Shown here piece by piece: positions 3,031-51,945 of a DNA stretch of 51,945 bases. The position numbers and the translations under genes are program-made. Under the pieces are notes generated by a model, which saw nothing but the letters and a program-made list of their open reading frames with translations, searched no databases and was not told the DNA's origin. The stretch comes from a plasmid. The stretch lies in sequence record NZ_CP027240.1; one strand, 5' to 3'. Within the stretch, counting starts at the first letter, position 1; every line of letters starts with the position of its first letter.

Positions 3031-3480
3031 ATGACGATTGATAGCGTATCGGGTGACCCGGTCGACGAGTCCCTCCAGTTGGAGGATCGCAGCGTGTATG
3101 CGGCGCTGTTTCATGCTTTGGCAGAGCCGACGCGGTTGGCGATTCTCGAGCACCTCGGTAGCGGCGAGCACCGGGTGCGGGATGTGGTTGACCACATGCA
3201 CCTGGCGCAGTCCACGGTGAGCAAGCATCTGGCCTGTCTTCGGGACTGCGGGCTGGTGACTGTGCGGATCGAAGGCAGGGCCTCCTGGTTCTCGCTGGCG
3301 GACCCAACTCGGTTGGAAGCCCTGATCGAGTCTGCAGCGGCGCTCCTGAGCGCATCGGGGACCACGCTTTCGCTGCGCGAGCACCGCGATCTCCATGATC
3401 GCGATGCGGCTCAGTGGACCGAGACTGTCATGCGAGTGCCCCAATTGTCGCAGCCATCCACCAGTCGAGGAAAGGTCTGA
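3031..3480 (+). CDS. ArsR/SmtB-family metalloregulator (CmtR/CzrA-like). Start uncertain; alternative ATG at 2977.
   Basis: LAEPTRLAILEHL ... STVSKHLACLRDCGLV winged-HTH with Cys residues. Its stop lies 8 bp before the CDF gene start. Confidence 0.75.
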   Translation: MTIDSVSGDPVDESLQLEDRSVYAALFHALAEPTRLAILEHLGSGEHRVRDVVDHMHLAQSTVSKHLACLRDCGLVTVRIEGRASWFSLADPTRLEALIESAAALLSASGTTLSLREHRDLHDRDAAQWTETVMRVPQLSQPSTSRGKV

Positions 3481-3487
3481 AACCACT

Positions 3488-6145: not shown

Positions 6146-6154
6146 CAGGGTTAG

Positions 6155-7015
6155 TCACGCGGCCTGAGGGGCCTCATGGTTGATGATGGTCTCGTATTCG
6201 ATCGGGGTCAATCTGCCGAGGCGGTCCTGCCGTCTGCGGCGGTGGTAGGTGCGTTCGATCCAGTGCACGATGGCAGCCCGGAGCTCGTCTCTGGTGGCCC
6301 AGGATCGGCGGTCAAGGACGTTGTTCTGCAGCAGCGAAAAGAAGCTCTCCATGGCCGCGTTGTCACCGCACGCGCCGACTCTGCCCATCGACCCGAGCAT
6401 GCCGTGTCGCCGGATGGCCTTCTGCATCTTCTTCGAGCGAAATTGAGATCCTCTATCGCTGTGCAGGATGCAACCGGTCACCTCGCCCCGCCTGGCGACA
6501 GCGCTGTTCAGAGCGTTGACCGCCAGGCGGGACTTCATTCGCGCATCGATCGAATACCCGACGATCCGTCCCGAGTAGACGTCCTTGATCGCACACAGGT
6601 AGAGCTTGCCCTGGCCGGTGCGGTGCTCGGTGATGTCGGTCAGCCACAGCTCGTTCGGACCGTAGGCGGTGAAGTCCCGCTCGACCAAATCGTCGTGTAC
6701 GGGCTCGCCGGCCTTGCGGTGCTTGCCGCGGCCCTTTCGGCTGATGGCGCTGGTCCAGCCACCGGACGAGCAGATCCGCCAAGCGGTTCGCCGGCACATC
6801 TTCTCGCCCGCGGCCTCGGCCTCGTCGGCCAGGTAGCGGTACCCGAACTCCGGGTCTTCGCGGTGGGCATCGAACAGGGCGTTGGCCCGGTACGCCTCGG
6901 CCAGTTCGGCGTCGGTCACGGGCTTTTTGAGCCACCGGTAGTAGGGCTGACGAGCAATTCCGAGTACCCGGCACGTCACCGTGACAGCGATGCCGTCAGC
7001 GGCGAGCTCGTTCAC
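6155..7015 (-). CDS. IS3-family transposase OrfB (DDE integrase core)
   Basis: 286 aa with rve-type DDE motifs (LWLTDITE..., HSDRGSQF...). Overlaps the OrfA stop by GTGA. Confidence 0.9.
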   Translation of the reverse strand: MNELAADGIAVTVTCRVLGIARQPYYRWLKKPVTDAELAEAYRANALFDAHREDPEFGYRYLADEAEAAGEKMCRRTAWRICSSGGWTSAISRKGRGKHRKAGEPVHDDLVERDFTAYGPNELWLTDITEHRTGQGKLYLCAIKDVYSGRIVGYSIDARMKSRLAVNALNSAVARRGEVTGCILHSDRGSQFRSKKMQKAIRRHGMLGSMGRVGACGDNAAMESFFSLLQNNVLDRRSWATRDELRAAIVHWIERTYHRRRRQDRLGRLTPIEYETIINHEAPQAA

Positions 7016-7371
7016 GAGCGGGTACCACCTTTTCCCGGCAGATTCGCCTGGGACAGGTAGGCAGCAGCGCGGCGCAGGACCTCGTTCTCCTGCTCCAGCA
7101 GACGTACTCGGCGCTTGGCCTCGCGCAGCTCACGCGACTCGGCCGACGTGGTGCCGGGTTTGATCCCGGCCTCCACGTCGGCCTTGCGCATCCACTTCTG
7201 CAACGTCACTGGATGGACACCGAAGTCCCGGGCGATCTGGTCCAGGGAGACACCGTCCTCGCGGGACTGAGCCACCCGGACGACGTCGTCGCGGAACTCC
7301 TGGGGGTAGGGCTTGGGCACAGCAACATCCTTCCAGGCCCGCCCCGCAGGGCAAGCCAGATCAGATGTCAC
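7012..7371 (-). CDS. IS3-family transposase OrfA (HTH). Slippery heptamer GGGAAAA 18 nt before its stop allows -1 frameshift into OrfB.
   Basis: 119 aa with HTH and leucine-zipper-like region. The OrfB frame is open upstream of its GTG through the heptamer. Confidence 0.85.
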   Translation of the reverse strand: MTSDLACPAGRAWKDVAVPKPYPQEFRDDVVRVAQSREDGVSLDQIARDFGVHPVTLQKWMRKADVEAGIKPGTTSAESRELREAKRRVRLLEQENEVLRRAAAYLSQANLPGKGGTRS

Positions 7372-7681
7372 CTACTCATGCATCAGCCCCCGCTGCCGAT
7401 CTGAGTTAGGAGTGTGCGCACGCAGATTGTCGTCCGGTCGCTGGCAGCCATCATCATCAATGGTCTGTGGGCTGCTCGTATCGGAGCTACCGCTCCCCGA
7501 ACCGTCGCTGGCACACTGGCTCCGTCATTGCCGCCCACCATTGCTGTCCGTACCTGACCGTGCCTCTGCGTTACCAGAAGTCGGTCGCGAGCCGTCGGCA
7601 CGCCTCCGGGAATGCTCAGAATTCCGTGCGAGACGGTGTCCGGTCGTCTGGTTGCACAGCCTCTAAAAGTAGGGAAGTCAC

Positions 7682-10554: not shown

Positions 10555-10768
10555 TCAGGCCAAGGGCTTCACCCCCTGGCCTGCGAGTGCTTGGGAGAGG
10601 CGGACGGAGTCGCCGCTGGTCTGGCAGACGTGGGCGTGGTGCAGGAGCCGGTCCACTGTCGCGGTGGCGATGGTCTTGGGCATGAGTTCGTCGAAGCCGG
10701 CCGGGTGCAGGTTCGAGCTGATCGCGATGGCTCGTTTTTCGTAGGCGGCGTCCACCAGGCGGTAAAGC
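10555..10768 (-). pseudogene. istB: IS21 helper ATPase IstB, C-terminal fragment (split by ISL3)
   Basis: Sequence ...LYRLVDAAYEKRAIAISSNL... continues the 12224..12815 ORF across the ISL3 insertion. Confidence 0.8.
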
Positions 10769-12223
10769 GGCTCTTCCGGATCCGGAGTGCGTAGCTGGGG
10801 TTCGCCGGTGATGCGGTGAGGCACAAGATGTAGGGGTCCTGGGGCGTGTGAAGATGCAGGTTCCTACGCCACGCATCGAACACCCCAGGACCCGCTTTGA
10901 ACGCTACCGCCAGCCTGCTTGCCGACACCATCTGCCGCACCGTCGAGCTCGGGGTGACGATCACCGACGCCGCTGTGGCTGACGAGCTCACGCACCTGTT
11001 CTGCGCCCCGGTCACACTCGACCCGGTCTGCGCCGAGTGCGGGATGGCGGGCCGTTTGCGGGACCACGTCCAGCGGAAGGTCACGGATCTGCCGATCGTG
11101 GGTCATCCCACCAGACTGCATGTGCGGGTACCGCGCTTCACCTGCGACAACATCGAATGCGAGACGCGCATCTTCCAGCAGCGGATGCCGGCGTTGGCCG
11201 AGCCGCGGGCCAAGACCACGCGTCGCTGCAGCCGCTGGATCCTGCAGCGTCTGGCGATCGACCGCACCAGCGTGTCCGCGGTCGCCAAGGCCCTCGGGCT
11301 GGGGTGGGATCTGGTCAACGATCTAGCACTGTCGGAGACTCGCACGATCGTCTACGACCAGCCCGGCCACTTCGACGGCGTCCGCATTCTCGGAGTCGAC
11401 GAGCACAAATGGAAGCACGTGCGCGGCGACGGCAGCAGCTCATTCGTCACCGTCCTGGTCGACCTGACCCCGGTCGTGGACGGCACCGGCCCGTCTCGCC
11501 TGTTGGACATGGTCCCCGGGCGCTCGGCGAAGGTGCTCACCGAGTGGCTCGACGCCCGTGACCAGGTGTTTCGAGACCGAGTCAAGGTGGTCACGATGGA
11601 CGGGTTCGCCGGCTACCACTCCGCCGCCGCCAAAGCCGTTCCCGCTGCCCGGACGGTGATGGACCCCTTCCACGTCGTGCGCCTGGCCGCCGACAAGCTC
11701 ACCGTGTGCCGCCAACGCATCCAGCAGGCCACCACCGGGCACCGGGGCCGCACGGGCGATCCGCTGTACGGCATCCGCCGGACCTTGAACACCCGAGCCG
11801 AGCTGCTCACCGACAAGCAGAAGGTGCGCCTGTTCAAAGCATTCACCGCCAACGATGCGCACGCGGCGGTCGAGGTCACCTACGGCGTCTACCAGCGACT
11901 CATCGCCGCCTACGACGCCGCCGGCAAGCGGGAGGGCAAGATCGCGATGTACAAGCTCCTGCGCTCGATCCGGGCCGGGGTGCCCAAGGAGCTGCCCGAG
12001 CTCGCCCAGCTCGGTCGCTCACTGTGGAAACGGCATCGCGAGATCCTCGCTTACTTCGACGTGGGTGCCTCCAACGGACCCGTCGAGGCCATCAACGGCC
12101 GCCTCGAGCACCTCCGCGGGATCGCCCTGGGCTTCCGCAACCTCAAGCACTACATCTTGCGGTCACTCATTCACTCCGGCCGGCTTCAGGATCGGATCAA
12201 TGCACTCTGATTCCGGAAGAGCC
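10769..12223 (+). mobile_element. ISL3-family insertion sequence, copy 1 (1455 bp). IRs GGCTCTTCCGGATCCGGAGTGCGTAG / GGCTCTTCCGGAATCAGAGTGCATTG. 8-bp TSD GGTAAAGC. Inserted in istB.
   Basis: TSD at 10761-10768 and 12224-12231. A second near-identical copy lies at 49622..51076. Confidence 0.9.
10897..12210 (+). CDS. ISL3-family transposase
   Basis: 437 aa, N-terminal zinc-finger Cys pairs, DDE core. Near-identical paralog at 49635..50948. Confidence 0.9.
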   Translation: MNATASLLADTICRTVELGVTITDAAVADELTHLFCAPVTLDPVCAECGMAGRLRDHVQRKVTDLPIVGHPTRLHVRVPRFTCDNIECETRIFQQRMPALAEPRAKTTRRCSRWILQRLAIDRTSVSAVAKALGLGWDLVNDLALSETRTIVYDQPGHFDGVRILGVDEHKWKHVRGDGSSSFVTVLVDLTPVVDGTGPSRLLDMVPGRSAKVLTEWLDARDQVFRDRVKVVTMDGFAGYHSAAAKAVPAARTVMDPFHVVRLAADKLTVCRQRIQQATTGHRGRTGDPLYGIRRTLNTRAELLTDKQKVRLFKAFTANDAHAAVEVTYGVYQRLIAAYDAAGKREGKIAMYKLLRSIRAGVPKELPELAQLGRSLWKRHREILAYFDVGASNGPVEAINGRLEHLRGIALGFRNLKHYILRSLIHSGRLQDRINAL

Positions 12224-12815
12224 GGTAAAGCCCTTCAGCGGCGTCGGTGGCCACCGGCAGCAGTCCGATGTCGTCGACGATGATCAGGTCGGCGCGCAGG
12301 ATCTTGGCGATGGCCTTGGTGACGGTGTCGTCGGCGCGGTGACTGCGCAGGAGAACGCCGAGGTCTTCCAGGGTGAACCAGGAGACCTTCAGTCCCTCCT
12401 CGACCGCCTGCTGCCCGAGGGCCTCGAGCAGGAACGTCTTGCCGGTCCCAGAGGGCCCGCAGACGACGAGGTTCTCCTTGCGGTGCACCCACTCCAGCGT
12501 CCGCAACGCCTGTTGAGTCGGTGCTGGAATCGAGGAGACGGACTCGTCCCACGCGTCGAACGTCTTGCCAGTGGGAAACCCGGCGGCAGCGCGTCGAGTG
12601 GCCAGCGAGGCCCGGTCACGGCCGCTGGCCTCCTCAGCCAACAGCGCACGCAGCACCTCGGCCGGGTCCCAGCGTTGGGCTTTGGCGGTGGCGATCACCT
12701 CGGGCGCGTGGCGGCGAATGTGCGGCAGTCTCAGGCGCCGCAACACGGCGTCCAGGTCTGCGGGCAGCGGCGGACTGGCCGGCACACCCAGCGCCGGAAC
12801 CTCGGTGGTGGTCAT
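12224..12815 (-). pseudogene. istB: IS21 helper ATPase IstB, N-terminal fragment (Walker A GPSGTGKT), truncated by ISL3
   Basis: CGPSGTGKTFLLEAL P-loop. 4-bp overlap with the istA stop. Confidence 0.85.
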
Positions 12816-14353
12816 CGGTCTACCTCCTCAGAATCGGCGGCCACCGGTGATTGCCCGCCGAGGGCGGCCCATCCGGAAGTGCCCTGGGTCAGCGACCGGT
12901 CCTCACCCGCTGTGTGGGCTTGGCCGGCACCGCCGGAGGTGGCGTGGTGGTTCAGGATCGAAGGCAGATCGGCCTCGGCGAACCGGCTGTGCAGCGCCGC
13001 GTGACCGAGCGCCCAGTCGACCTCGCCCGGGTCGAACAGCTTGGCCAGGGCCACGGCCTCGGCCATCTTCACCCGCATCCTGGCCGTGCCCGCCGCGGCG
13101 GCCTCGGTCAGCCACAGCCGCGCCCCGTCGCCGAGGGCCAGGAAGGCCGCCTCCGCGGCGTTGCGGGCCTTGGGTTGGCGGTGCAGGGCCCCGGCCGGGG
13201 CGTCCGGGAAGTGCGCATCAGCCAGCCGCGGACTGCCTGGGGTGGCCCGCAGGTGTCGGGCCACCTCCACCGGCCCGTCGGGGCCGACGTGCACCACGAC
13301 GATCTGCTCGCCGGCGCCGGCACCATAGGCGCGGACCCACACGGTCTGACCGAGCAGCGTGTGCGGCACCGAGTACTGTCCGGATTCAAACGTCACCATC
13401 GGCGAGTTCACCGGCACCTGCCGGGTCGCCCCCAGCGCCACCGTGTATGCCTCGGTCGGCACGGTGTGCAGGCGGGCCCGTTCCTGGGCGAGCATCTCCG
13501 CTGGCGCTCGCCGAGTGACGCGGTGCTCCCGGTCGTTGATCTGCTCGCACCACTGCTCGCAGGCCTCCTCCAGCTCAGCGAACGAGGAGTACTCGCCGCG
13601 CAGGTTCGTCTCCTTGGGCACCAGGTCGGCTTTGGCGACCTTGACCGTGGACTCGCTACCACCCTTGGAAGCCGGATCCGCGGGCTCGCACGTGAGCACC
13701 GTGACCCCATAGTGGCGGGCGAACGCCACCACCTGCGGGTTGCGCACCGCCATCCCGGCCACGTGCTCAACGGTGACGGTCTTCTCGTTGTCGGTCAGCA
13801 CATACGTCGGCGCCCCGCCCAGGCGGCGCAACGTCACATCCAGGGCAGCGAACACACTCGGGGCCGTCTTGTCGCGGATCGGCAGGACCACCCGGAACCG
13901 TGACCACGCCAGCCACGCGCAAAACAGCACGGTCTTGACCCCGTCGATCACCGGACCGTCACCGAAGTCGTACTGCAACCACAGGCCCGGCTCGGTCACC
14001 CAGGGCCGGTGCACCCGCGCATGGCCCACGCGGTAGGACTTCTTCACCGCCGCCACCGCCCGACGCGTGGTGCGCTCCGAGCCGGTGAACCCCACCGCGA
14101 GCAGCTTGTCGTGGACCACGTCCGCGCGGATCTTGCCGCCGGAGCGCTCCACCCATTCCTCGACCTTCGGCATGAACTCGTCCATCAACTGCGGACGGGC
14201 CGCCGGCTTGTCGGTCAACCGGCCCGCATCACGAGCAGTCACATAGCGGGCAACGGTGTGGTGCGAGACCCCGGCGAGCTCGCCGGCATCCCGATACGAC
14301 CCTGTCAGATCAAACGCTTCGAGAATTTCCATGATCTCCTCGGCAGACTTCAT
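12812..14353 (-). CDS. istA: IS21-family transposase IstA
   Basis: N-terminal HTH (MKSAEEIMEILEAF...) and DDE integrase core. Start taken at ATG 14353 rather than the upstream TTG of the track ORF. Confidence 0.85.
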   Translation of the reverse strand: MKSAEEIMEILEAFDLTGSYRDAGELAGVSHHTVARYVTARDAGRLTDKPAARPQLMDEFMPKVEEWVERSGGKIRADVVHDKLLAVGFTGSERTTRRAVAAVKKSYRVGHARVHRPWVTEPGLWLQYDFGDGPVIDGVKTVLFCAWLAWSRFRVVLPIRDKTAPSVFAALDVTLRRLGGAPTYVLTDNEKTVTVEHVAGMAVRNPQVVAFARHYGVTVLTCEPADPASKGGSESTVKVAKADLVPKETNLRGEYSSFAELEEACEQWCEQINDREHRVTRRAPAEMLAQERARLHTVPTEAYTVALGATRQVPVNSPMVTFESGQYSVPHTLLGQTVWVRAYGAGAGEQIVVVHVGPDGPVEVARHLRATPGSPRLADAHFPDAPAGALHRQPKARNAAEAAFLALGDGARLWLTEAAAAGTARMRVKMAEAVALAKLFDPGEVDWALGHAALHSRFAEADLPSILNHHATSGGAGQAHTAGEDRSLTQGTSGWAALGGQSPVAADSEEVDR

Positions 14354-14543
14354 GTTGTCCCTCCTCGGGGCGATGGGCGCTTCAGCACCGCTATCGCACC
14401 CGAGGAGGGGCCCCGAACCGCCCAAGCGGGCCGGGAAACAATGTCGTGTCGGGCAGATCCCATGACCGCCAGCGGGCAACTCTCACGTCCGCCAGCGGGC
14501 ACCTTCGTGACCGCCTACGGGCAGTCTCTCGTGTCCGTCGTCA

Positions 14544-34746: not shown

Positions 34747-35002
34747 GACACCCGACCCTATTGCCCCACCCATCGTGCCGCAATCCCCAACCACCATGCC
34801 GCCGTCATCGTCTCCCCGTCCTGGTCCCCGATCGCCGCACCACATCTAGCACTGGCCGTGCTAGATCTTCCTCGCTGTCGCTCGCCACAAGCTGCCACAC
34901 ACAGTAGGCACTACGAGTGAACGACGGGAAACCGCTGGTCACATCGCCAGGCGCTGCGACGCATAGACGCGCGGATTCTGTCCGCATACGCTGGCGGGTG
35001 TG

Positions 35003-38000
35003 ATGAGCCTTCGAGCGGTGCACGCCGGTACTGGATACCAGTACCTGCTGCGCTCGGTCGCCACTCACGACGCCGACCCGCAAGGCATGGCCCTGTCGGA
35101 CTACTACGCCGCCAAGGGCACCCCACCCGGCGCATGGATCGGGCGCGGGCTCGACGGATTGGAATCGGACAACGCGATCGCGGGGGCGGTCGTCACCGAA
35201 GCGCAGATGGCGGCTCTGTACGGCGAGGGCCTGCACCCAGATACCGACCAGATGATGGCCGACGGCCGCAGCCTGTCGGCCTGCAAGCTCGGCCGATCCT
35301 TCCCCATCTACACCGGTGGGGTCGACGTGCTGGAGGCCATCGCTGCGGCCGAAAAGGCGTTCCTTCACACCGAGGGCCGGCGCCCCACCAGCGACGAACG
35401 AGGACAGATCGCCGAGGGGGTCGCGCGCCCGTTCTATACCGAGAAGTTCGGTTACGAACACGCCTCTGGCAAGGATGTCATCGCCTGGGTCAACCGTAAA
35501 CGCGACCAGGTCAAGCAAGCGGTCGCCGGGTTCGACTTCACGTTCTCCCCGGTGAAAAGTGTCAGCGTCTTGTGGGCGCTGGCCGATGAGAAGACTGCCT
35601 CTCGTGTGGCTGCGTTGCATCACGAAGCCGTGGCCGAAACCTTGGCATGGGCCGAGGACAACGCGATCTACACCAGGGTCGGAACGGGCGGCATCAAGCA
35701 GGTTAAGACGGGCGGCATCATCGCGGCTGAGTTCACCCATTTTGACACCCGAGGCGGCGACCCGGACCTGCATTCCCATGTACTGCTGGCCAACAAGGTC
35801 CAAGGCCCTGACGGGCGCTGGCTGTCGCTGGACTCTCGCGCGATCCATCAGATGCACCAGGCGATCTCGGCCCGCTACGACGCGACCCTGCACGACCTTC
35901 TGACCCGCCGTATGGGCGTGGAGTTCCAGGCCCACTACCCGCACCCGGACAAGGCGCCCATCTGGGAGGTCAAGGGCATCGACCGCCGTCTGATCGACGC
36001 CTTCTCCTCCCGCCGGGCCCTGGCCAGGCCGGTCTATGACCGACTCGTCGCGCAGTACGTTGAGAAGAACAATCGGCAGCCTTCCCAGCGGGCGTCCTAC
36101 GCCCTGTGGCAGAAGGCCATCCTCGACACCCGTGACGCCAAGAAGCCCGCCCAATCCCTGGCCGAACACCGCGCCACCTGGCGGGAGATGGCCGAACAGG
36201 CTGTGGGCACGCACGCGGTGGATAGCGTGGTTGGCGAGGTCACCGGGCAGGGTCGGAGCCAGGTGTCGCGGGAGCTGTTCGACGCCCAGGTCCACGCCCG
36301 CCTGGTGGCCGAGCGGGCGGTGGCGGCGGTGACCGCACGGCGGGCGCAGTTCCGCCGTTCCCACATCGAGACCGCCGTATTGGCCGCGCTCAAGGGTTAC
36401 CGATTCGAGGGCGCCGAGGCCCTGGACCGGGCGCACGAACAGGTCATGGCTACCGCTATGAACGAGATCGTGGTGCAGCTGACCCCGCCGGAGATTCTGG
36501 ACCTGCCGGGTGCGTTGACCGGGCCGGAAGGTGCCGGCATTGACCGGCACGCAAACGCCGAGAAGTACACCACTCAGGCAGTGCTGGACGCCGAGACCGC
36601 CACCCTGGAGGCGACTGGAACCCCGGTCGCTGTGATCGCTACCCGCGCCGATCTCGACCGTGCGCTGAAGGCGCACGAGGACGCCGAGGGTTGGTCCCTC
36701 AATGCCGGCCAGACCGCTCTGGCGCAGCACCTCATTGGTGCCGGAACGCTCCTGGCCGCCGGGGTGGGTCCGGCCGGGACCGGCAAGACCGCATCTATGA
36801 AGGTCGTGGCCCGCACCTGGCAACACACCGGCCGGTCGGTTGTCGGCCTTGCTCCTTCCGCGGCAGCGGCCAGCGTCCTCGCGGGCGACATCGGCACCGA
36901 CTGTCACACTATCGACTCTCTGACCTTCACCTGGATGGGCAAGCACCCCACCCTGCCCGGAAAGACTCTCGACGCGTTGCCCGTGATGATCCGCCCTGGC
37001 GACATGCTTCTGGTCGATGAGGCGGGCATGGCCAGCACCGAGAACCTGGCCGCGCTGACTGAGATCGCCGCCGAATCTGGGGCCATTCTCCGCCTGATCG
37101 GCGACCCCAAGCAGCTCGCTGCTGTCGAGACTGGCGGTCTGTTCGCCGACCTGGCCAGCACCCCAGGGACGCCTCAGCTGCGGGAGGTGATGCGCATGGG
37201 CGCAGACACCGACCAAGCCGGCGCGACCCTCGCTCTCCGCGAAGGCGATCCCGGCGCCCTGGACCTCTACAACGAGCGCGGATGGATCATCGGCGGGCAC
37301 CGGGAGCAGATGCTCACCCAGGCCGCCCAGGCGTTCCTGGCCGACACCACCGCGGGCCGACAGTCGCTGATCATCGCCTCCACCAACACCGACGTCGACA
37401 CCCTCAACGAAGTGATCCGCTCGAGCCGCATCGCCCACGGACTGGTCGACGACGCACACACCACCAGGGTCGCTCGCGGGGACACCGTGGGTGTCGGCGA
37501 CACCGTGATCGCCCGCACCAACTCCACGCTGTATTCCGATGACCGCACCTACCTCGGTCGGGTCATCAACGGACAGTTGTTCACCGTCACCGGCATCGCA
37601 GGCGACGGCTCACTTGGGGTGCGCGACTCCTCCACCGGGCAGGCCATGCTCATCCCCGCCAGCTACGCCGACAAGAGCATTCATCTCGGTTACGCGGCCA
37701 CCATCCACCGCGCGCAGGGCGCCACCGTCGATACCGTCCACGCCGTCATCGACGCTGGCGTGGATCGTGCCGGCCTGTACGTCGCCATGACCCGCGGCAG
37801 ACGAGAAAACCGCGCCTACGCCGTATGTGAACCCGTCCTCGACACGGGCGCCGAGGATGCGCACATGCACTCCGCCGGCGACCACCAAGCCCCAACACCC
37901 ACGCAGGTGCTCACTGGCGTTCTGGCCCGCGAGACGCACCAGGCCTCGGCCACCGAAACCCTCCGCCAGGAGTACGCCAGCGCCACCAGCGACGAACGAC

Positions 38001-38542
38001 TGGAGCAGCTCTACCGCCACGGCGTTGATTTAGCCGCCCGCGATTTTGCCGCCGCCACCCTCCCTGCCTACATCGACGCACTCCCCCGTGCCTTGGCCCA
38101 CCAGCTCGAGGCAGACCCCGACCAGTGCCAGGCCCTGGAAGGCGCGTGGACCGAAGCAGCAACCAGGGGCCTCGACCCCCGCGAGGAATGGGACAACGCC
38201 ACCGAAACCCTCGACACCGCCAACAAGCCCGGCACCGTCATCGCCCACCGGATACGTCACGCGACCGGTGAGACCACCGACACCACCACCCTGCCCACTC
38301 CCCCACCCGCGGCCCCGGAATGCGACACCGAACTGACCACCTGGCTTGCAGAAACCCATCGCACACTCACCGCCGATCCTGCCGCCCAGGCGATAGCCCC
38401 TGCCGCTTCCTTCACTGCCGAGGACTTTGTCGCCTCCTACCTCGCATCCCGGTCCGCAGAACACGAACCCGGCCCGGACACCCACCCCACGACGAGCTCG
38501 CCATGGGGGCCATCACCCGACTTCTCCCCCGACCTGTGGTGA
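35003..38542 (+). CDS. MOBF-family conjugative relaxase/helicase (TrwC/TraA-like: N-terminal relaxase domain + C-terminal RecD-like helicase)
   Basis: N-terminal TrwC-type relaxase region with catalytic Tyr context and HxH-type His cluster (HFDTRGGDPDLHSHVLL). Walker A GVGPAGTGKT, DEAGM Walker B, C-terminal UvrD-like helicase motifs. Confidence 0.85.
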   Translation: MSLRAVHAGTGYQYLLRSVATHDADPQGMALSDYYAAKGTPPGAWIGRGLDGLESDNAIAGAVVTEAQMAALYGEGLHPDTDQMMADGRSLSACKLGRSFPIYTGGVDVLEAIAAAEKAFLHTEGRRPTSDERGQIAEGVARPFYTEKFGYEHASGKDVIAWVNRKRDQVKQAVAGFDFTFSPVKSVSVLWALADEKTASRVAALHHEAVAETLAWAEDNAIYTRVGTGGIKQVKTGGIIAAEFTHFDTRGGDPDLHSHVLLANKVQGPDGRWLSLDSRAIHQMHQAISARYDATLHDLLTRRMGVEFQAHYPHPDKAPIWEVKGIDRRLIDAFSSRRALARPVYDRLVAQYVEKNNRQPSQRASYALWQKAILDTRDAKKPAQSLAEHRATWREMAEQAVGTHAVDSVVGEVTGQGRSQVSRELFDAQVHARLVAERAVAAVTARRAQFRRSHIETAVLAALKGYRFEGAEALDRAHEQVMATAMNEIVVQLTPPEILDLPGALTGPEGAGIDRHANAEKYTTQAVLDAETATLEATGTPVAVIATRADLDRALKAHEDAEGWSLNAGQTALAQHLIGAGTLLAAGVGPAGTGKTASMKVVARTWQHTGRSVVGLAPSAAAASVLAGDIGTDCHTIDSLTFTWMGKHPTLPGKTLDALPVMIRPGDMLLVDEAGMASTENLAALTEIAAESGAILRLIGDPKQLAAVETGGLFADLASTPGTPQLREVMRMGADTDQAGATLALREGDPGALDLYNERGWIIGGHREQMLTQAAQAFLADTTAGRQSLIIASTNTDVDTLNEVIRSSRIAHGLVDDAHTTRVARGDTVGVGDTVIARTNSTLYSDDRTYLGRVINGQLFTVTGIAGDGSLGVRDSSTGQAMLIPASYADKSIHLGYAATIHRAQGATVDTVHAVIDAGVDRAGLYVAMTRGRRENRAYAVCEPVLDTGAEDAHMHSAGDHQAPTPTQVLTGVLARETHQASATETLRQEYASATSDERLEQLYRHGVDLAARDFAAATLPAYIDALPRALAHQLEADPDQCQALEGAWTEAATRGLDPREEWDNATETLDTANKPGTVIAHRIRHATGETTDTTTLPTPPPAAPECDTELTTWLAETHRTLTADPAAQAIAPAASFTAEDFVASYLASRSAEHEPGPDTHPTTSSPWGPSPDFSPDLW

Positions 38543-43321: not shown

Positions 43322-43329
43322 CGCTCCTT

Positions 43330-44742
43330 GGTCAAGTCCCAGGTAGTGGTGTATCGCCTGTGATCCTTCGTAGGGGTTAGGCGCTGAGTTCGAGGACGGG
43401 GTCGGTGCTCACCTCCGTCGTCGTGTCGGTCACTGGAGCGAGTCGGCAGCGGGCGAGGACTTCGAGGCCGAGGTAGCGGCGGCCTTCGGCCCATTCGTCG
43501 GTCTGTTCGGCCAGCACGGCCCCGACGAGGCGAACGATGGCCTGCCGGTTGGGGAAGATGCCCACGGCGTCGGTGCGGCGCCGGATCTCCTTGTTCAGCC
43601 GCTCGGAGGGGTTGTTGGACCAGATCTGGGTCCAGACGTCCTTGGGGAAGGCGGTGAAGGCCAGGATGTCGGCGCGGGCGGCGTCGAGGTGCTCGGCCAC
43701 CGCCGGCAGCTTGGCGGCCACGTAGTCCAGCAGCCGGTCGAACTGGGCGTGCACCGCGGCGGCGTCGGGCTGGTCGTAGACCGAGTGCAGCATCGCCTTG
43801 ACCGCCGGCCACATCGACTTCGGGGTCACGCTCATGAGGTTGGCGGCGTAGTGGGTGCGGCAGCGCTGCCAGGTGGCGCCGGGAAGGTTGGCCGCGATGG
43901 CCTCGACGAGGCCGGCGTGCGCGTCTGAGGTCACGAGCCGGACCCCAGCCAGGCCGCGGGCCACGAGGTCGGCGAAGAACTCGTTCCACGCCGCCCCGGT
44001 CTCGGCCGTGGCCACCCGCATGCCCAGGACCTCGCGGTGCCCGTCACCGTTGACACCGGTCGCGATCAGGACCACGGCGTTGATGACCCGCCCGCCCTCG
44101 CGCACCTTCATGGTCAGGGCGTCGGCGGCGACGAACGTGAAGGGTCCGGCCTCGTCGAGGGGCCGGTGGCGGAAGGCCTCGACCTGGGCGTCGAGGTCGG
44201 CGGCCATCCGGGACACCTGCGACTTCGACAGGCTGTTGATGCCCAGCTGCTTGACGAGCTTGTCCATCCGGCGGGTGCTCACCCCGGCCAGATAACAGTC
44301 CGCCACCACCGTGATCAGCGCCGACTCGGCCCGCTTGCGCCGCTCGAGCAGCCACTCGGGGAAGTACGTCCCGGTGCGCAGCTTGGGGATCGCGACGTCG
44401 ATCGTGCCGACCCGGGTGTCCAGGTCGCGGTGCCGGTAGCCGTTGCGCTGCGCGGTCCGGTCCGGGCTGCGTTGGCCCCACTCGGCACCGACCACCGCGT
44501 CGGCGTCGGCGGACAGCAGCGCGTTGATCACCGTCTGCAGCAGGTTGCGCATGAGGTCCGGGGAGGCTTCCGCCAGGGCCTCGCCAAGCAGGCCGGCAGG
44601 GTCGACAATGTGAGGTGCGGTCACCGTGATGCTCCGTTCGAGAGTGCTGTGAAGGGTTCACTCGAAGATCACGCGGTGGCCGCTCCACGTCTACTACGAC
44701 GAGGCCGGCAACCGCGTTACACCATCATCGGGGACTCAACTC
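43330..44742 (-). mobile_element. IS256-family insertion sequence, copy B (complete, ~1413 bp). Imperfect IRs GGTCAAGTCCCAGGTAGTGGTGTATCGC / GAGTTGAGTCCCCGATGATGGTGTAACGC.
   Basis: Ends defined by comparison with copies A and C. Left flank CGCTCCTT (43322-43329). Confidence 0.85.
43377..44624 (-). CDS. IS256-family (Mutator-like) transposase
   Basis: 415 aa with DDE motif typical of IS256 transposases. Three copies or fragments in the window. Confidence 0.9.
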
Positions 44743-45033
44743 GTTTCCGCCCTGAAGGAGCGCTGCGTGGGCGGGAGACGATGTGATCTACTGCGTTCCT
44801 CGCCAACCCAGGCGAAGCCCTCATGCAGTCGGCGCGTGGTTCCGGCGCCTTCATTTACCGTACTCATCGAGATCGGTCAGGCCAGTCACTATGGAAACCG
44901 TGGCCCTCGCGGGGAAGTGGGCATCGCTCTAGCGTTACCCGCCAGTCCTCATGAGTTCGCCGTCGCGGAACGGTGCGGACTTGGTCGCCAACGCGCCTGT
45001 CGGCGCCATGCAGACGTCGACAGGCGCGGAAAG

Positions 45034-47106
45034 TCATCTGCCGTGCTCGCGCTGGTCGTACGAGCTTCCCGCGGCTACCGAGTGTCCATCGGTCGTCGAG
45101 CCCGGAGCGCACGGTCGCCCGGAGTTCAGGTCAGAACCTTGGCGGGTACCGAAATCGACCTGGGCGCGCCTAGTTTCGCCACGGCCCGGGCGGAGCATGC
45201 GCAGGCCGTTGAGGATGATCAGCGCCGCGCTGCCCTCGTTGAGGAGCAGGCCGGTGGTCAGGGACATCCAGCCGGCGAGGGCGGCGACGATCAGGATGGC
45301 GACGACGGTCAGGCTCAGGGCGATGTTGATCTTGATGTTGTTCCGAGCGCGGCGCGATAGTCGGATGGCGGCCGGGAGCCGGTCGAGCTCGTCGGCCATG
45401 AGGGCGACATCGGCGGTCTCTAGGGCGACGTCGGTGCTGGCGGCACCCATGGCGATGGCGAGGTCGGCGTTGGCCAGGGCGGGGGCGTCGTTGACGCCGT
45501 CGCCGACCATCGCGATCACGCCGTGTTTCTCGCGCAGCTCACGGATTGCGGCGGATTTGTCCTCGGGGAGCAACTCGGCGCGGTAGTCGTCTAGCCCCAG
45601 GGCCTGCGCGGTGGATCTGGCGACGGTGGCGTTGTCGCCGGTGAGCATCAGGACCCGCTCGACTCCGAGGTCGCGCAGCTCGGTAAGGGTGCTTTCGGCG
45701 TCGGGGCGCAGCTGGTCGGCCACCGCCACGACGGCCAAGGGTCGGGTGTCGTCGCGAAGAACCACGGCCGTGCATCCTTCCGCCTCGGCGTGCGCCAGCG
45801 CCGGGCCTGCGGTGCCGTCAGTCCGGTCCTCGTCGGTGGGCCGGCCGATGTGCAGGGTGCGACCGTCGAGGGTGGCTTCCATGCCGGCTCCTGGCAGGGC
45901 GCGTGCATCCTGGACGGCCGGGATGGTCAACCCGCGGTCGCGGGCACCGGCCACGATCGCGGTCGCGATGGGGTGCTCGCTACCGGTCTCGACCGCCGCC
46001 GCAAGGGTCAGAGCCTCGTCCTCGCTGATCCCGTCGAGGGGCGTCACTTGAGCGAGAGTGGGCCGGCCGCGGGTGAGGGTGCCGGTCTTGTCGAAGGCGA
46101 CGGCCTTGATGTCGGCCAGGCGCTCAAGGTAGATGCCGCCCTTGATGAGGATGCCGTCGCGGGCGCCCCGGGCGATAGCGGTGACCACGCTGACAGGCAC
46201 CGAGATGATCAGGGCGCAGGAGCAGGAGACGACCAGGACCACGAGGGCTCGGTAGATCGCCTCGCGCCACTCGAAGCCGAGCAGCGGCAGTACTAGTGCC
46301 ACGGCTATGGCCAGGGCGAACATCGCCGGGGTGTAGACAGCACCGAACTTGTCCGCGAACCGCTCGGCGCCGCTGCGGTTGGCCTGGGCCTCCTCGACCT
46401 GCTCGATCACGCGGGCCAGGACCGTGTCGTAGTACTCCTTGGTGACCTCGATCCGCAGCACGCCATTGCCGTTGAGGCTGCCGCCGAAGACCTCGGTGCC
46501 CGCGGTGGCCTCGACCGGCACGGACTCCCCGGTCACCGGGCTGGCGTCCACCCACGAGGCGCCATCGATCACAGCGCCGTCGGTGGGTAGGCGCTCACCG
46601 GGACGCACCAGGACGACGTCACCGGGGTGGAGTTCCTCCACCGCCACGGTCTTGGTCGCCCCGTCATCGTTGAGTCGGTTGGCGGTGGGGGGTGCGAGCT
46701 CCATCAGGGCGCTAATAGACCCGCGGGCCTTGTCGGTGGCGTAGGCCTCCATCGCCTCACCGAGGCTGAAGATGACGACGAGCATCGCCGCCTCCTCGAT
46801 CACCCCAAGCGCGATGGCTCCGATGGCGGCCACGACCAGCAGCACGGTGATGGTCAGCCGTTTGTGGCGCACCGCCCGGATCGCGCTGCGCAATGGGTAG
46901 ACGCCGCCGATGAGGATCGCGCCCCAGAATAGGGCCAGGGCCACCGGCTCGGAGTGGATGGTCCACTCCACCACCAGCCCGGCCACCAGCAGCACCGCGG
47001 CGACGGCCAGCGTGACCATCTCGGGCTTCTGCCACCAGCGGCGGGCGCGAGGCCGAACCGCGACAGCGGACGTGACGTGTGGTGACGTGCTCGCATTAGC
47101 ACTCAT
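45034..47106 (-). CDS. P1B-type heavy-metal translocating ATPase lacking an N-terminal metal-binding domain, with atypical TM motif S-C-S-C (CSC instead of CPC/SPC)
   Basis: DKTGTLT, GDGVNDAP, TGES motifs. 8 TM. TM6 sequence VVLVVSCSCALIIS confirmed on the DNA (tcc tgc tcc tgc). Confidence 0.85.
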   Translation of the reverse strand: MSANASTSPHVTSAVAVRPRARRWWQKPEMVTLAVAAVLLVAGLVVEWTIHSEPVALALFWGAILIGGVYPLRSAIRAVRHKRLTITVLLVVAAIGAIALGVIEEAAMLVVIFSLGEAMEAYATDKARGSISALMELAPPTANRLNDDGATKTVAVEELHPGDVVLVRPGERLPTDGAVIDGASWVDASPVTGESVPVEATAGTEVFGGSLNGNGVLRIEVTKEYYDTVLARVIEQVEEAQANRSGAERFADKFGAVYTPAMFALAIAVALVLPLLGFEWREAIYRALVVLVVSCSCALIISVPVSVVTAIARGARDGILIKGGIYLERLADIKAVAFDKTGTLTRGRPTLAQVTPLDGISEDEALTLAAAVETGSEHPIATAIVAGARDRGLTIPAVQDARALPGAGMEATLDGRTLHIGRPTDEDRTDGTAGPALAHAEAEGCTAVVLRDDTRPLAVVAVADQLRPDAESTLTELRDLGVERVLMLTGDNATVARSTAQALGLDDYRAELLPEDKSAAIRELREKHGVIAMVGDGVNDAPALANADLAIAMGAASTDVALETADVALMADELDRLPAAIRLSRRARNNIKINIALSLTVVAILIVAALAGWMSLTTGLLLNEGSAALIILNGLRMLRPGRGETRRAQVDFGTRQGSDLNSGRPCAPGSTTDGHSVAAGSSYDQREHGR

Positions 47107-47135
47107 CGACTATTTCCCTTCCTCCACCGGTGACT

Positions 47136-47381
47136 TCATGCCCGGACCGGGCGCGCCGGGCCGGCGGCGACCAGGGGCAGCCCGGACTTCTTCGCGGCCG
47201 CGACGACGGCGTCATCGCTCACGGTGCCGTCGTGAGTGACCAGCACCAGACCGGAAGCAAGCGCGTCGACCTCCTTGACCCCGGGCAGGGACTCCACGAC
47301 GGCGAGGTCACCCGCGCAGGTCACGCAGCCGCCTTCGATGGCGCGGTACTTGGAGCGGAGGAACTGGGTAGGGGTGGTCAC
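47136..47381 (-). CDS. Small HMA-like (heavy-metal-associated fold) putative metallochaperone with CVTC motif
   Basis: 81 aa, GGCVTCAG...LPGV...beta-alpha-beta-beta-alpha-beta-like pattern. Immediately upstream of the ATPase gene. Confidence 0.45.
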   Translation of the reverse strand: MTTPTQFLRSKYRAIEGGCVTCAGDLAVVESLPGVKEVDALASGLVLVTHDGTVSDDAVVAAAKKSGLPLVAAGPARPVRA

Positions 47382-47482
47382 GGTTGATCTCCTTCTAGCT
47401 CGTGGAACATCGGACTTCGATGGACGTCAAAGTCTACGTTCCCGAGTTTGCCGTAGAGTTCGATACATGTCAATATGTACCC

Positions 47483-47857
47483 ATGTCGATGTCTGGTCTG
47501 TCCGCCCGTGACGCCGCGTTGGGATACTGCACGCCCCTCGCCCGCGAGCCGATCACCCCGGCGCAGGCCGAAGGTGTCTCCCGCATGCTTAAGGCTCTGG
47601 CCGATCCGGTGCGGCTGCGATTGATGTCGATGATCCTGTCCCACGAGGGCGCCCAGGCGTGCGCCATGTGCGACCTGACAGAAGGCTTCGACCTGTCGCA
47701 GTCGACCCTCAGCCACCACCTGAAAGTTATGCACGACGCCGGCTTGGTCGACCGCCACAAGCGCGGCGTTTGGGTCTACTACAAGGCCCGCACGGAGGCG
47801 ATGGACGCCCTGCGCACCCTGTTCAGCGGCGACCTCGCTGCTCCTCAGTTGGCGTGA
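47483..47857 (+). CDS. ArsR/SmtB-family metalloregulator (CadC/CmtR-like), divergent from the chaperone-ATPase operon
   Basis: LADPVRLRLMSMIL...ACAMCDL...STLSHHLKVMHDAGLV. N-terminal Cys. Start chosen at an internal ATG. Confidence 0.75.
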   Translation: MSMSGLSARDAALGYCTPLAREPITPAQAEGVSRMLKALADPVRLRLMSMILSHEGAQACAMCDLTEGFDLSQSTLSHHLKVMHDAGLVDRHKRGVWVYYKARTEAMDALRTLFSGDLAAPQLA

Positions 47858-47952
47858 CCGAAACTCTTGTCCTGTCTTCTCGGTACGGCCGCGAACTTGG
47901 GTTATCTTCTGGGATGCGAGCACATCTCGGCGGCGCATGCGCCGCCTCTGGT

Positions 47953-48437
47953 GGTCAAGTCCCAGGTAGTGGTGTATCGCCTGTGATCCTTCGTAGGGGT
48001 TAGGCGCTGAGTTCGAGGACGGGGTCGGTGCTCACCTCCGTCGTCGTGTCGGTCACTGGAGCGAGTCGGCAGCGGGCGAGGACTTCGAGGCCGAGGTAGC
48101 GGCGGCCTTCGGCCCATTCGTCGGTCTGTTCGGCCAGCACGGCCCCGACGAGGCGAACGATGGCCTGCCGGTTGGGGAAGATGCCCACGGCGTCGGTGCG
48201 GCGCCGGATCTCCTTGTTCAGCCGCTCGGAGGGGTTGTTGGACCAGATCTGGGTCCAGACGTCCTTGGGGAAGGCGGTGAAGGCCAGGATGTCGGCGCGG
48301 GCGGCGTCGAGGTGCTCGGCCACCGCCGGCAGCTTGGCGGCCACGTAGTCCAGCAGCCGGTCGAACTGGGCGTGCACCGCGGCGGCGTCGGGCTGGTCGT
48401 AGACCGAGTGCAGCATCGCCTTGACCGCCGGCCACAT
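47953..48437 (-). mobile_element. IS256 copy C, transposase-3' segment (left IR to the IS3 insertion point)
   Basis: Identical to the 43330..43814 part of copy B. Ends at CAT where IS3 is inserted. Confidence 0.85.
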
Positions 48438-48456
48438 GGGGCTGATGCATGAGTAG

Positions 48457-48816
48457 GTGACATCTGATCTGGCTTGCCCTGCGGGGCGGGCCTGGAAGGA
48501 TGTTGCTGTGCCCAAGCCCTACCCCCAGGAGTTCCGCGACGACGTCGTCCGGGTGGCTCAGTCCCGCGAGGACGGTGTCTCCCTGGACCAGATCGCCCGG
48601 GACTTCGGTGTCCATCCAGTGACGTTGCAGAAGTGGATGCGCAAGGCCGACGTGGAGGCCGGGATCAAACCCGGCACCACGTCGGCCGAGTCGCGTGAGC
48701 TGCGCGAGGCCAAGCGCCGAGTACGTCTGCTGGAGCAGGAGAACGAGGTCCTGCGCCGCGCTGCTGCCTACCTGTCCCAGGCGAATCTGCCGGGAAAAGG
48801 TGGTACCCGCTCGTGA
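48457..48816 (+). CDS. IS3-family transposase OrfA (copy 2)
   Basis: Identical to 7012..7371. Confidence 0.85.
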
Positions 48817-49621
48817 ACGAGCTCGCCGCTGACGGCATCGCTGTCACGGTGACGTGCCGGGTACTCGGAATTGCTCGTCAGCCCTACTACCGGTGGCTCA
48901 AAAAGCCCGTGACCGACGCCGAACTGGCCGAGGCGTACCGGGCCAACGCCCTGTTCGATGCCCACCGCGAAGACCCGGAGTTCGGGTACCGCTACCTGGC
49001 CGACGAGGCCGAGGCCGCGGGCGAGAAGATGTGCCGGCGAACCGCTTGGCGGATCTGCTCGTCCGGTGGCTGGACCAGCGCCATCAGCCGAAAGGGCCGC
49101 GGCAAGCACCGCAAGGCCGGCGAGCCCGTACACGACGATTTGGTCGAGCGGGACTTCACCGCCTACGGTCCGAACGAGCTGTGGCTGACCGACATCACCG
49201 AGCACCGCACCGGCCAGGGCAAGCTCTACCTGTGTGCGATCAAGGACGTCTACTCGGGACGGATCGTCGGGTATTCGATCGATGCGCGAATGAAGTCCCG
49301 CCTGGCGGTCAACGCTCTGAACAGCGCTGTCGCCAGGCGGGGCGAGGTGACCGGTTGCATCCTGCACAGCGATAGAGGATCTCAATTTCGCTCGAAGAAG
49401 ATGCAGAAGGCCATCCGGCGACACGGCATGCTCGGGTCGATGGGCAGAGTCGGCGCGTGCGGTGACAACGCGGCCATGGAGAGCTTCTTTTCGCTGCTGC
49501 AGAACAACGTCCTTGACCGCCGATCCTGGGCCACCAGAGACGAGCTCCGGGCTGCCATCGTGCACTGGATCGAACGCACCTACCACCGCCGCAGACGGCA
49601 GGACCGCCTCGGCAGATTGAC
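48813..49621 (+). pseudogene. IS3-family transposase OrfB (copy 2), truncated 21 codons before its stop by the ISL3 insertion
   Basis: Identical to copy 1 up to ...RQDRLGRL, then ISL3 IR sequence. Remaining codons PIEYETIINHEAPQAA found at 51085..51136. Confidence 0.85.
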
Positions 49622-51076
49622 GGCTCTTCCGGAATCAGAGTGCATTGATCCGATCCTGAAGCCGGCCGGAGTGAATGAGTGACCGCAAGATGTAGTGCTT
49701 GAGGTTCCGGAAGCCCAGGGCGATCCCGCGCAGGTGCTCGAGGCGGCCGTTGATGGCCTCGACGGGGCCGTTGGAGGCACCCACGTCGAAGTAAGCGAGG
49801 ATCTCGCGATGCCGTTTCCACAGCGACCGGCCCAGCTGGGCGAGCTCGGGCAACTCCGTTGGCACACCGGCCCGGATCGACTTGAGGAGCTTGTACATCG
49901 CGATCTTGCCCTCCCGCTTGCCCGAGGCCTCGTAGGCGGCGATGAGTCGCTGGTAGACGCCGTAGGTGACCTCCACCGCCGCGTGCGCATCATGGGCGGT
50001 GAACGCCTTGAACAGGCGGACCTTCTGCTTGTCGGTCAACAGCTCAGCGCGGGTGCGCAGGATGCGACGGATGCCGTACAGCGGATCGCCGGTGCGGCCC
50101 CGGTGCCCGGTGGTGGCCTGCTGGATCCGCTGGCGGCACACGGTGAGCTTGTCCGCGGCCAGGTGCACGACGTGGAACGGGTCCATCACCGTCCGTGCTG
50201 CAGGAACAGCTTTCGCCGCAGCGGAATGGTAGCCGGCGAACCCGTCCATCGTGACAACCTTGACTCGATCCCGAAACACCTGGTCACGGGCGTCCAGCCA
50301 CTCGGTGAGCACCTTCGCCGAACGCCCCGGGACCATGTCCAGCAGACGAGACGGGCCAGTGCCGTCCACGACCGGGGTGAGGTCGACCAGCACGGTGACG
50401 AACGCACTGCTGCCGTCGCCGCGCACGTGCTTCCACTTGTGCTCATCGACACCGAGAACGCGGACGCCATCGAAGTGTCCGGGCTGCTCGTAGACCATCG
50501 CGCGAACCTCCGAGACCGCCAGGTCATTGACCAAATCCCACCCCAGCCCGAGGGCCTTGGCCACCGCGGACACGCTGGTGCGGTCGATCGCCAAGCGCTG
50601 CAGGATCCAGCGGCTGCAGCGGCGGGTGGTCTTGGCCCGCGGCTCGGCCAACGCCGGCATCCGCTGCTGGAAGATCCTCGTAGCGCACTCGGTGTTGTCG
50701 CAGGTGAAGCGCGGTACCCGCACGTGCAGTCTGGTCGGGTGCCCGACGATCGGTAGATCCGTGACCTTCCGCTGGACGTGGTCCCGCAAACGGCCCGCCA
50801 TCCCGCACTCGGCGCAGATCGGGTCGAGTGTGACCGGGGCGCAGAACAGGTGCGTGAGCTCGTCAGCCACAGCGGCGTCGGTGATGGTCACCCCGAGCTC
50901 GACGGTGCGGCAGATGGTGTCGGCGAGCAGGCTGGCGGTAGCGTTCAAAGCGGGTCCTGGGGATGCGAAGTGCTGGTGTAGGAACTTGCATCTTCACACG
51001 CCCCAGGACCCCTACATCTTGTGCCTCACCGCATCACCGGCGAACCCCAGCTATGCACTCCGGATCCGGAAGGGCC
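49622..51076 (-). mobile_element. ISL3-family insertion sequence, copy 2 (1455 bp), 8-bp TSD AGATTGAC, inserted in IS3 orfB
   Basis: AGATTGAC at 49614-49621 and 51077-51084. IRs match copy 1. Confidence 0.9.
49635..50948 (-). CDS. ISL3-family transposase (copy 2; few aa differences from copy 1)
   Basis: 437 aa, identical length and near-identical sequence to 10897..12210. Confidence 0.9.
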   Translation of the reverse strand: MNATASLLADTICRTVELGVTITDAAVADELTHLFCAPVTLDPICAECGMAGRLRDHVQRKVTDLPIVGHPTRLHVRVPRFTCDNTECATRIFQQRMPALAEPRAKTTRRCSRWILQRLAIDRTSVSAVAKALGLGWDLVNDLAVSEVRAMVYEQPGHFDGVRVLGVDEHKWKHVRGDGSSAFVTVLVDLTPVVDGTGPSRLLDMVPGRSAKVLTEWLDARDQVFRDRVKVVTMDGFAGYHSAAAKAVPAARTVMDPFHVVHLAADKLTVCRQRIQQATTGHRGRTGDPLYGIRRILRTRAELLTDKQKVRLFKAFTAHDAHAAVEVTYGVYQRLIAAYEASGKREGKIAMYKLLKSIRAGVPTELPELAQLGRSLWKRHREILAYFDVGASNGPVEAINGRLEHLRGIALGFRNLKHYILRSLIHSGRLQDRINAL

Positions 51077-51168
51077 AGATTGACCCCGATCGAATACGAG
51101 ACCATCATCAACCATGAGGCCCCTCAGGCCGCGTGACTAACCCTGTCACCTAACCGTGCACCACCCCC

Positions 51169-51945
51169 CATCGACTTCGGGGTCACGCTCATGAGGTTGG
51201 CGGCGTAGTGGGTGCGGCAGCGCTGCCAGGTGGCGCCGGGAAGGTTGGCCGCGATGGCCTCGACGAGGCCGGCGTGCGCGTCTGAGGTCACGAGCCGGAC
51301 CCCAGCCAGGCCGCGGGCCACGAGGTCGGCGAAGAACTCGTTCCACGCCGCCCCGGTCTCGGCCGTGGCCACCCGCATGCCCAGGACCTCGCGGTGCCCG
51401 TCACCGTTGACACCGGTCGCGATCAGGACCACGGCGTTGATGACCCGCCCGCCCTCGCGCACCTTCATGGTCAGGGCGTCGGCGGCGACGAACGTGAAGG
51501 GTCCGGCCTCGTCGAGGGGCCGGTGGCGGAAGGCCTCGACCTGGGCGTCGAGGTCGGCGGCCATCCGGGACACCTGCGACTTCGACAGGCTGTTGATGCC
51601 CAGCTGCTTGACGAGCTTGTCCATCCGGCGGGTGCTCACCCCGGCCAGATAACAGTCCGCCACCACCGTGATCAGCGCCGACTCGGCCCGCTTGCGCCGC
51701 TCGAGCAGCCACTCGGGGAAGTACGTCCCGGTGCGCAGCTTGGGGATCGCGACGTCGATCGTGCCGACCCGGGTGTCCAGGTCGCGGTGCCGGTAGCCGT
51801 TGCGCTGCGCGGTCCGGTCCGGGCTGCGTTGGCCCCACTCGGCACCGACCACCGCGTCGGCGTCGGCGGACAGCAGCGCGTTGATCACCGTCTGCAGCAG
51901 GTTGCGCATGAGGTCCGGGGAGGCTTCCGCCAGGGCCTCGCCAAG
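51169..51945 (-). mobile_element. IS256 copy C, transposase-5' segment (continues beyond the window end). The transposase N-terminal part is 51172..51945.
   Basis: Identical to 43815..44591 of copy B. Joined to the IS3 right IR after TSD CAT. Confidence 0.85.

Follow-up and report, generated by a model that had tools for sequence, protein, structure and literature searches.

Nested insertion sequences of the ISL3, IS3 and IS256 families on plasmid NZ_CP027240.1

On IS-rich plasmids, an insertion sequence (IS) can interrupt another one, each with its own target duplication, and the nesting then gives the relative order of the insertions. In large surveys, new ISs were found to be drawn to IS hotspots (PMC9208149). 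A nest of this kind, an ISL3-family element inside an IS3-family element inside an IS256-family element, is present on the plasmid of sequence record NZ_CP027240.1. The whole record (51,945 bp, one strand, G+C content of 65.3%) was analysed and is called the window hereafter. The mechanism is no different from that of other IS nests, but the case is a clean one, thanks to uninterrupted reference copies on the same molecule.

The IS256 family, with IS256 of Staphylococcus aureus and ISCth4 as examples, is characterized by a single Mutator-type DDE transposase, imperfect inverted repeats and a target duplication of normally 8-9 bp. The window member resembles them in all of these, with duplications of 8 bp; it differs in being actinobacterial and in also forming the two arms of a composite transposon. 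In IS3-family elements, like IS911 and IS6110, orfA and orfB are in phases 0 and -1, with a slippery heptamer of the type X_XXY_YYZ, an rve domain, inverted repeats of ~25 bp and duplications normally of 3-5 bp; 5'-TG...CA-3' termini are frequent in this family, though not defining. The window element is organized in the same way, with 3-bp duplications, but its termini are GGGG...CCCCC and the TG...CA dinucleotides are absent. Both the IS3 and the IS256 family elements transpose by a copy-out/paste-in route (PMC7780238). The ISL3 family, represented by IS31831 and IS1096, shares with the window elements a single transposase with a zinc ribbon, a helix-turn-helix (HTH) and the DDE_Tnp_ISL3 domain, as well as 8-bp duplications; in contrast, the window harbours two distinct lineages, whose sequences differ by 7.5%.

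Composite transposons offer the second comparison. In Tn5 (IS50L) and Tn10 (IS10L), two ISs flank the cargo, only the outer flanks carry a target duplication and one arm lacks transposase function while its outer end is kept. The window composite likewise consists of two IS copies around a cargo, with an outer-only duplication and one defective arm. In contrast to Tn5 and Tn10, its arms are direct repeats, the inactivation is due to the IS3/ISL3 nest instead of a point mutation, and the cargo is a metal-efflux ATPase with an ArsR regulator.

Three nested elements on a circular plasmid

The outermost element of the nest belongs to the IS256 family and is present in two copies, B and C, in direct repeat on the minus strand. 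Copy B (43330-44741, 1412 bp) is intact and encodes a transposase of 415 amino acids (43377-44624, minus strand), in one long open reading frame (ORF) of the Mutator/IS256-type DDE class (NF033543, 337.8 bits for a cut-off of 150; PF00872, 461.5 bits). Copy C is interrupted. Its left segment (47953-48437, 485 bp), containing the 3' part of the transposase gene, is 100% identical to 43330-43814. Its right segment (51172-51945) is 100% identical to 43815-44588 and reaches the end of the window; the element goes on at the other end of the record, where its last 153 bp (1-153) abut position 51945. Self-comparison shows that the window is a closed circle without overlap, as bases 1-155 correspond to 44589-44743 of copy B and are the exact continuation of position 51945 (= 44588). 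A public contig (ENA ERZ26880502 NODE_169, L002) follows the window from 3036 to 1, straight through the IS256 element, and then from 47951 to 45000, bridging the origin join without a break.

The first-pass annotation of the window had assigned bases 1-155 to a third IS256 copy, "copy A", and had overlooked both the circularity and the composite transposon formed by B and C. A third copy was rejected, since these bases abut position 51945 exactly in IS256 coordinates and L002 spans the join: they are the end of copy C. Upon deletion of 48438-51171, an exact string reconstruction joining 47952-48437, 51172-51945 and 1-155 is identical to 43329-44743 of copy B at 1415 of 1415 positions. In a self-BLAST of 47501-51945, 47952-48437 matches 43329-43814 at 100%, and the alignment of 51166-51945 to 43809-44588 contains a single mismatch, located where BLAST over-extended into the end of the IS3 element.

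The ends of the IS256 element were placed at 43330 and 44741, which delimit the only span (1412 bp) common to five independent, 100%-identical public copies (L004, L005, L009, L010 and L011). With these ends, each of the five is flanked by a perfect 8-bp duplication. Although B and C are identical out to 43329 and 44743, these wider ends were rejected, as the five copies match 43330-44741 only. The inverted repeats, read by eye from the junction sequences, are imperfect (~20 of 28 positions match). A near-identical IS256 element in another assembly (GCA_025150145.1, JAMBAZ010000002.1, IS at 2884-4295; L006) has no 8-bp duplication and is flanked by GTTCGACCG and TCGAGTGC, a mismatch that suggests an IS256-mediated rearrangement or deletion in that genome.

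Copy C is split after codon 270 of its transposase gene by an IS3-family element on the plus strand. The trinucleotide CAT borders this element on both sides (48435-48437 and 51169-51171) and is single at the matching site of copy B. The left segment of the IS3 element (48438-49621, 1184 bp) is 100% identical to 7390-6207; the right segment (51085-51168, 84 bp), comprising the final 16 codons of orfB as well as the right inverted repeat, is 100% identical to 6206-6123. The reference is an intact IS3 copy of 1268 bp on the minus strand (6123-7390), flanked by a 3-bp duplication of its own (CGC on the plus strand, equal to GCG; 6120-6122 and 7391-7393). Removal of 49622-51084 restores an IS3 element that is the exact reverse complement of 6123-7390 (1268/1268, by string reconstruction), and BLAST aligned 48438-49621 to 7390-6207 and 51076-51168 to 6215-6123, both at 100%. 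A metagenome scaffold (L012) contains the context of the intact IS3 at 100% identity over 6053 bp.

Within the nested copy, the left inverted repeat (48438-48462; the repeats are ~25 bp long) is followed on the plus strand by orfA (48508-48816), with an HTH_Tnp_1 domain, and by orfB, which runs from 48813 in the -1 phase relative to orfA and contains rve and rve_3 domains (PF00665, 83 bits; PF13683, 28 bits). A slippery heptamer, G_GGA_AAA (48792-48798, plus strand), is located in the orfA/orfB overlap. Frameshifting between the two genes would produce an OrfAB fusion of 388 amino acids; the product modelled with a -1 shift covers positions 1-369 of the 369 of NF033516 in one stretch (314.3 bits).

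The innermost element is an intact ISL3-family IS of 1455 bp on the minus strand (49622-51076; NF033550), with the inverted repeats GGCTCTTCCGGAATCAGAGTGCAT and GGCCCTTCCGGATCCGGAGTGCAT, which start with GGCTCTTCC and match at ~20 of 24 positions. Its transposase of 437 amino acids (49635-50948, minus strand) was recognized by NF033550 (327.4 bits, cut-off 180), PF01610 (DDE_Tnp_ISL3, 183 bits), PF14690 and PF13542, and comprises the zinc ribbon and HTH of the family. The 8-bp sequence AGATTGAC is found on its left (49614-49621) and on its right (51077-51084); the intact IS3 contains it as a single copy (6207-6214, reverse complement). The insertion splits the conserved tail of OrfB between LGRLT and PIEYE: LGRLT followed by PIEYETIINHEAPQAA has been turned into LGRLT followed by ALPESECIDPILKPAGVNE, so that the last 16 residues are replaced and the product ends at a stop at 49682 after 19 foreign residues.

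A second ISL3 element of the same length is located on the plus strand (10769-12223), between copies of the 8-bp duplication GGTAAAGC (10761-10768 and 12224-12231); set beside the AGATTGAC of the nested copy, this duplication reads GCTTTACC, and both are 8 bp. The targets of both ISL3 copies are comparatively AT-rich for this window. The two elements are only 92.45% identical, with 110 differences over 1456 aligned positions (BLAST, 49621-51076 against 12224-10769). Their transposases are 95.9% identical, and the codon differences are mostly silent (71 synonymous, 18 non-synonymous). Judged by these sequences, they are separate lineages under purifying selection, both intact, and not recent sisters. 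The best match of the nested copy in PLSDB is 93.9% identical; this copy is intact and presumably active.

The second ISL3 is itself nested: in the region 10761-14479, it lies within istB of an IS21-family element. If it is deleted, an IstB-like ORF of ~265 amino acids appears downstream of istA (12812-14479, minus strand; NF033546, 185 bits). An 88.5%-identical ISL3 relative on plasmids of Rhodococcus sp. LW-XY12 and Dietzia kunjamensis is found in two pieces ~4.1 kb apart, and an IS21 istA and an ATP-binding protein gene are annotated under this split match, which suggests a related ISL3/IS21 nest.

The repeats at the IS3 and ISL3 junctions are demonstrated duplications and not chance repeats, because the uninterrupted reference copies in the same window carry each target once. 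Their lengths also agree with those of other copies: 3 bp at the intact IS3, 8 bp at the second ISL3 and 8 bp at the five public IS256 elements. The three-level nest, the family assignments and the junction coordinates proposed in the first-pass annotation are therefore borne out, by NCBIfam and Pfam as well as by the exact reconstructions, and the CAT and AGATTGAC duplications are exactly where it had placed them. The alignments that it expected to be collinear and near-identical are so for the IS256 and IS3 parts; for ISL3, the alignment is collinear, but an identity of 92.45% is not near-identity. The statement that the IS3 and the ISL3 each have a nearly identical second copy thus holds for the former and fails for the latter. 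The same applies to the "recent and ongoing transposition" deduced from it: identity within the window supports recent transposition only for IS3 and IS256, because the ISL3 copies have diverged.

The composite transposon with a metal-efflux cargo

It had also been claimed that all target-site duplications of the nest are readable. This is not the case at the IS256 level: copy C leaves the window at its end and, after wrapping around the circle, its flanks are CCTCTGGT on the left and CGCTCCTT on the right, which are not duplicates of each other. Copy B has no duplication of its own either, with CGCTCCTT on the left and CGTTTCCG on the right. The left flank of B (43322-43329) is, however, identical to the right flank of C (154-161). 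CGCTCCTT is thus found on the outer flanks only, and the inner flanks of B and C are unrelated. An 8-mer shared by the outer flanks is the signature of a transposition of the two copies and the DNA between them as a whole unit. For the surroundings of copy B, an independent contig (L003) agrees with the window over 7248 bp at 100%.

The cargo between the two direct repeats (44742-47952) contains a heavy-metal P1B-type ATPase of 690 amino acids (45034-47106, minus strand; TIGR01525, 604.5 bits), an ORF of 81 amino acids (47136-47381, minus strand) and an ArsR/SmtB regulator (47420-47857, plus strand; NF033788, 84 bits). When the unit and one copy of the duplication are deleted, an ORF of ~168 amino acids is restored on the minus strand. 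It aligns in one collinear piece with uninterrupted hypothetical-protein genes on Rhodococcus plasmids, at 79-84% identity; an identical empty site was not found, only these homologues. The first step would then have been the entry of two direct-repeat 1412-bp IS256 elements, together with the ArsR regulator and the P-type ATPase, into a small hypothetical gene, with duplication of CGCTCCTT.

The same IS256-cargo-IS256 unit is present on a short-read metagenome scaffold, scaffold_81 of ENA ERZ28598028 (L007, L008), where arms and cargo are 99.8-100% identical to those of the window. There, it is located amid unrelated genes and is bordered on the outside by a different perfect 8-bp duplication, CAATCAGG. 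Two unrelated sites with different outer duplications identify the unit, which measures 6,035 bp once the nest is discounted, as a mobile composite transposon, subject to confirmation of the short-read scaffold. An origin of the B/C arrangement through homologous recombination of IS256 elements or through a cointegrate between them, with the nest carried passively along with one arm, would fit inner flanks that lack a duplication of their own and the fact that one inner junction is not the same in the window and in scaffold_81. Yet perfect duplications restricted to the outer flanks, at two unrelated sites (CGCTCCTT and CAATCAGG), are the signature of whole-unit transposition, and the restored target is a continuous gene. 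This origin is considered highly improbable, the least probable of the alternatives weighed here.

The ATPase and ArsR part of the cargo (window 45169-47954) is 99.5% identical to the Micrococcus luteus plasmid pSGAir0127 (NZ_CP025617.1, L001), in which it is bounded by elements of the IS481 and IS3 families. Micrococcus luteus belongs to another order of Actinomycetes than the Dietzia-like backbone of this plasmid, which suggests that the cargo was recently transferred between orders. The inner junction beside copy C (47945-47952) reads GCCTCTGGT up to the IS in both the window and M. luteus, and GCCTCAAAAT up to the IS in scaffold_81 (L007).

A search of the literature turned up no specific account of a cadmium composite transposon built on IS256 in Actinobacteria. 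The odds are judged to be even that the unit is an undescribed, currently mobile composite transposon, spreading a Cd/Zn-type efflux system among actinobacterial replicons, and that one of its arms has been disabled here by the nest.

Order of the insertions

The preferred reading is one of successive insertions, the composite IS256 unit followed by IS3 in arm C and then by ISL3 in IS3, with a probability of about 0.82. After the entry of the composite, the 1268-bp IS3 would have interrupted the transposase gene in arm C behind codon 270 (of 415), duplicating CAT; the target of the 1455-bp ISL3 would then have been a site 92 bp short of the right IS3 end, with duplication of AGATTGAC and replacement of the last 16 residues of OrfB. 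With the interrupted hypothetical gene, this makes four levels in all: gene, composite transposon, IS3 and ISL3. The order IS256, IS3, ISL3 had been called unambiguous; it is the simplest (most parsimonious) reading, although not a strictly unambiguous one from structure alone.

Several observations weigh against this succession. The order is read from the nesting only, and no verified IS256::IS3 intermediate without ISL3 was found. Two scaffolds that could have represented one (L016 and L017) were rejected, since their left and right flanks are mismatched and they are probably chimeric. The repeat arms are 100% identical; if the record was assembled from short reads, it is ambiguous which IS256 copy contains IS3 and which IS3 copy contains ISL3. 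Contig L002 depicts copy C as uninterrupted, which could represent a collapsed repeat path. Finally, a T on the left side and a CG on the right side are common to the inner flanks of B and C, as in the outer duplication, a coincidence with a chance of 1 in 64.

The identity of the arms, over 485-1184 bp and thus beyond the length of a short read, is also what would permit a partial assembly artefact. The four junctions would then be real but assigned to the wrong repeat copies, for example with the ISL3 in reality inside the IS3 at 6123-7390 or the IS3 inside IS256 copy B, and a three-level nest on a single molecule may not exist. Such errors do seem to occur around this element: among the public short-read scaffolds of SPIRE style that contain IS3 (L013-L021), most combine a left and a right flank of different origin and lack a matching 3-bp duplication, which indicates that most of these assemblies are chimeric across the 1.27-kb repeat. 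For the window itself, however, the circle closes without overlap, every insertion has matching duplications on both sides, and the independent contigs L003 (7248 bp) and L012 (6053 bp) match its arrangement at 100%. An artefact of this type is regarded as unlikely. On one of the scaffolds (L021), two IS3 relatives are adjacent, 96% and 88.5% identical to the window IS3.

The last two steps could also be reversed. ISL3 may first have entered an IS3 at another location, such as the chromosome, after which the 2.7-kb IS3::ISL3 would have moved as a unit into IS256, by means of OrfAB from an intact IS3 or of its own, C-terminally altered OrfAB. Both inverted repeats of the IS3 are intact with the ISL3 wholly between them, an intact and 100%-identical IS3 on the same plasmid could supply the transposase, and only the last 16 of the 388 OrfAB residues are replaced, the rve domain being intact. 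On the other hand, IS3-family transposases prefer to act in cis, and no other copy of the junction was encountered in the window, in the GTDB representative genomes or in the JGI metagenomes. A large gene collection lists the intact OrfB, with the same start codon called, in 56 blocks but has no record of the chimeric version. This sequence of events is given a low probability.

The same searches bear on the age of the ISL3 insertion. Neither the IS3/ISL3 nor the IS256/IS3 junction of the nest had a match in the GTDB representative genomes or the JGI metagenomes, and the chimeric OrfB had no exact-protein match in the large gene collection; no exact-protein match was obtained for the ISL3 transposase either, taken with two candidate start codons. 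In contrast, the IS256 transposase and the uninterrupted OrfB occur widely. Because the chimeric OrfB and the junctions are unmatched while the intact OrfB is widespread, the data fit an ISL3 insertion that came last and is confined to this plasmid, although the junction searches do not prove the order.

If the insertions succeeded each other as preferred here, the IS3 would have destroyed the transposase of IS256 copy C and left both ends of that copy in place, so that the outer ends of the composite could continue to be used by copy B. Both IS256-C and the nested IS3 have probably lost their autonomy. As their ends are intact, they could be mobilized in trans by the intact copies on the plasmid.

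The plasmid and the meaning of the nest

The plasmid is circular, Dietzia-like and of the MobF type. A TrwC/MobF relaxase is encoded in its backbone (35000-38542), and the nearest backbones are those of Dietzia plasmids, which are 84-91% identical to the window across the relaxase region; a PLSDB search did not retrieve the window itself. Metal and redox genes dominate the region between 3155 and 30139, with a CDF transporter, ArsR, DsbA/VKOR/DsbD, PCuAC, an N-terminal fragment of a Dyp-peroxidase, CopD/CtaG, Nramp, a MerA-like (pyridine nucleotide-disulphide) oxidoreductase and an MFS transporter.

The nest is real and cleanly readable, and it is an ordinary outcome of IS activity on an IS-rich plasmid, with known families and no new mechanism. 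It allows IS events on one plasmid to be placed in relative time and has little import beyond annotation, for which it holds a warning: 1-153, 47953-48437 and 51172-51945 are fragments of a single element. Novelty, of a modest kind, is confined to the mobile IS256 composite with its metal-efflux module. As a vehicle that moves a heavy-metal efflux module between actinobacterial plasmids and other replicons, it is of modest use in tracking metal resistance in the mobilome. If it is indeed an undescribed mobile composite, its disabled arm would offer a natural snapshot of how asymmetric composites of the Tn5/Tn10 type arise.

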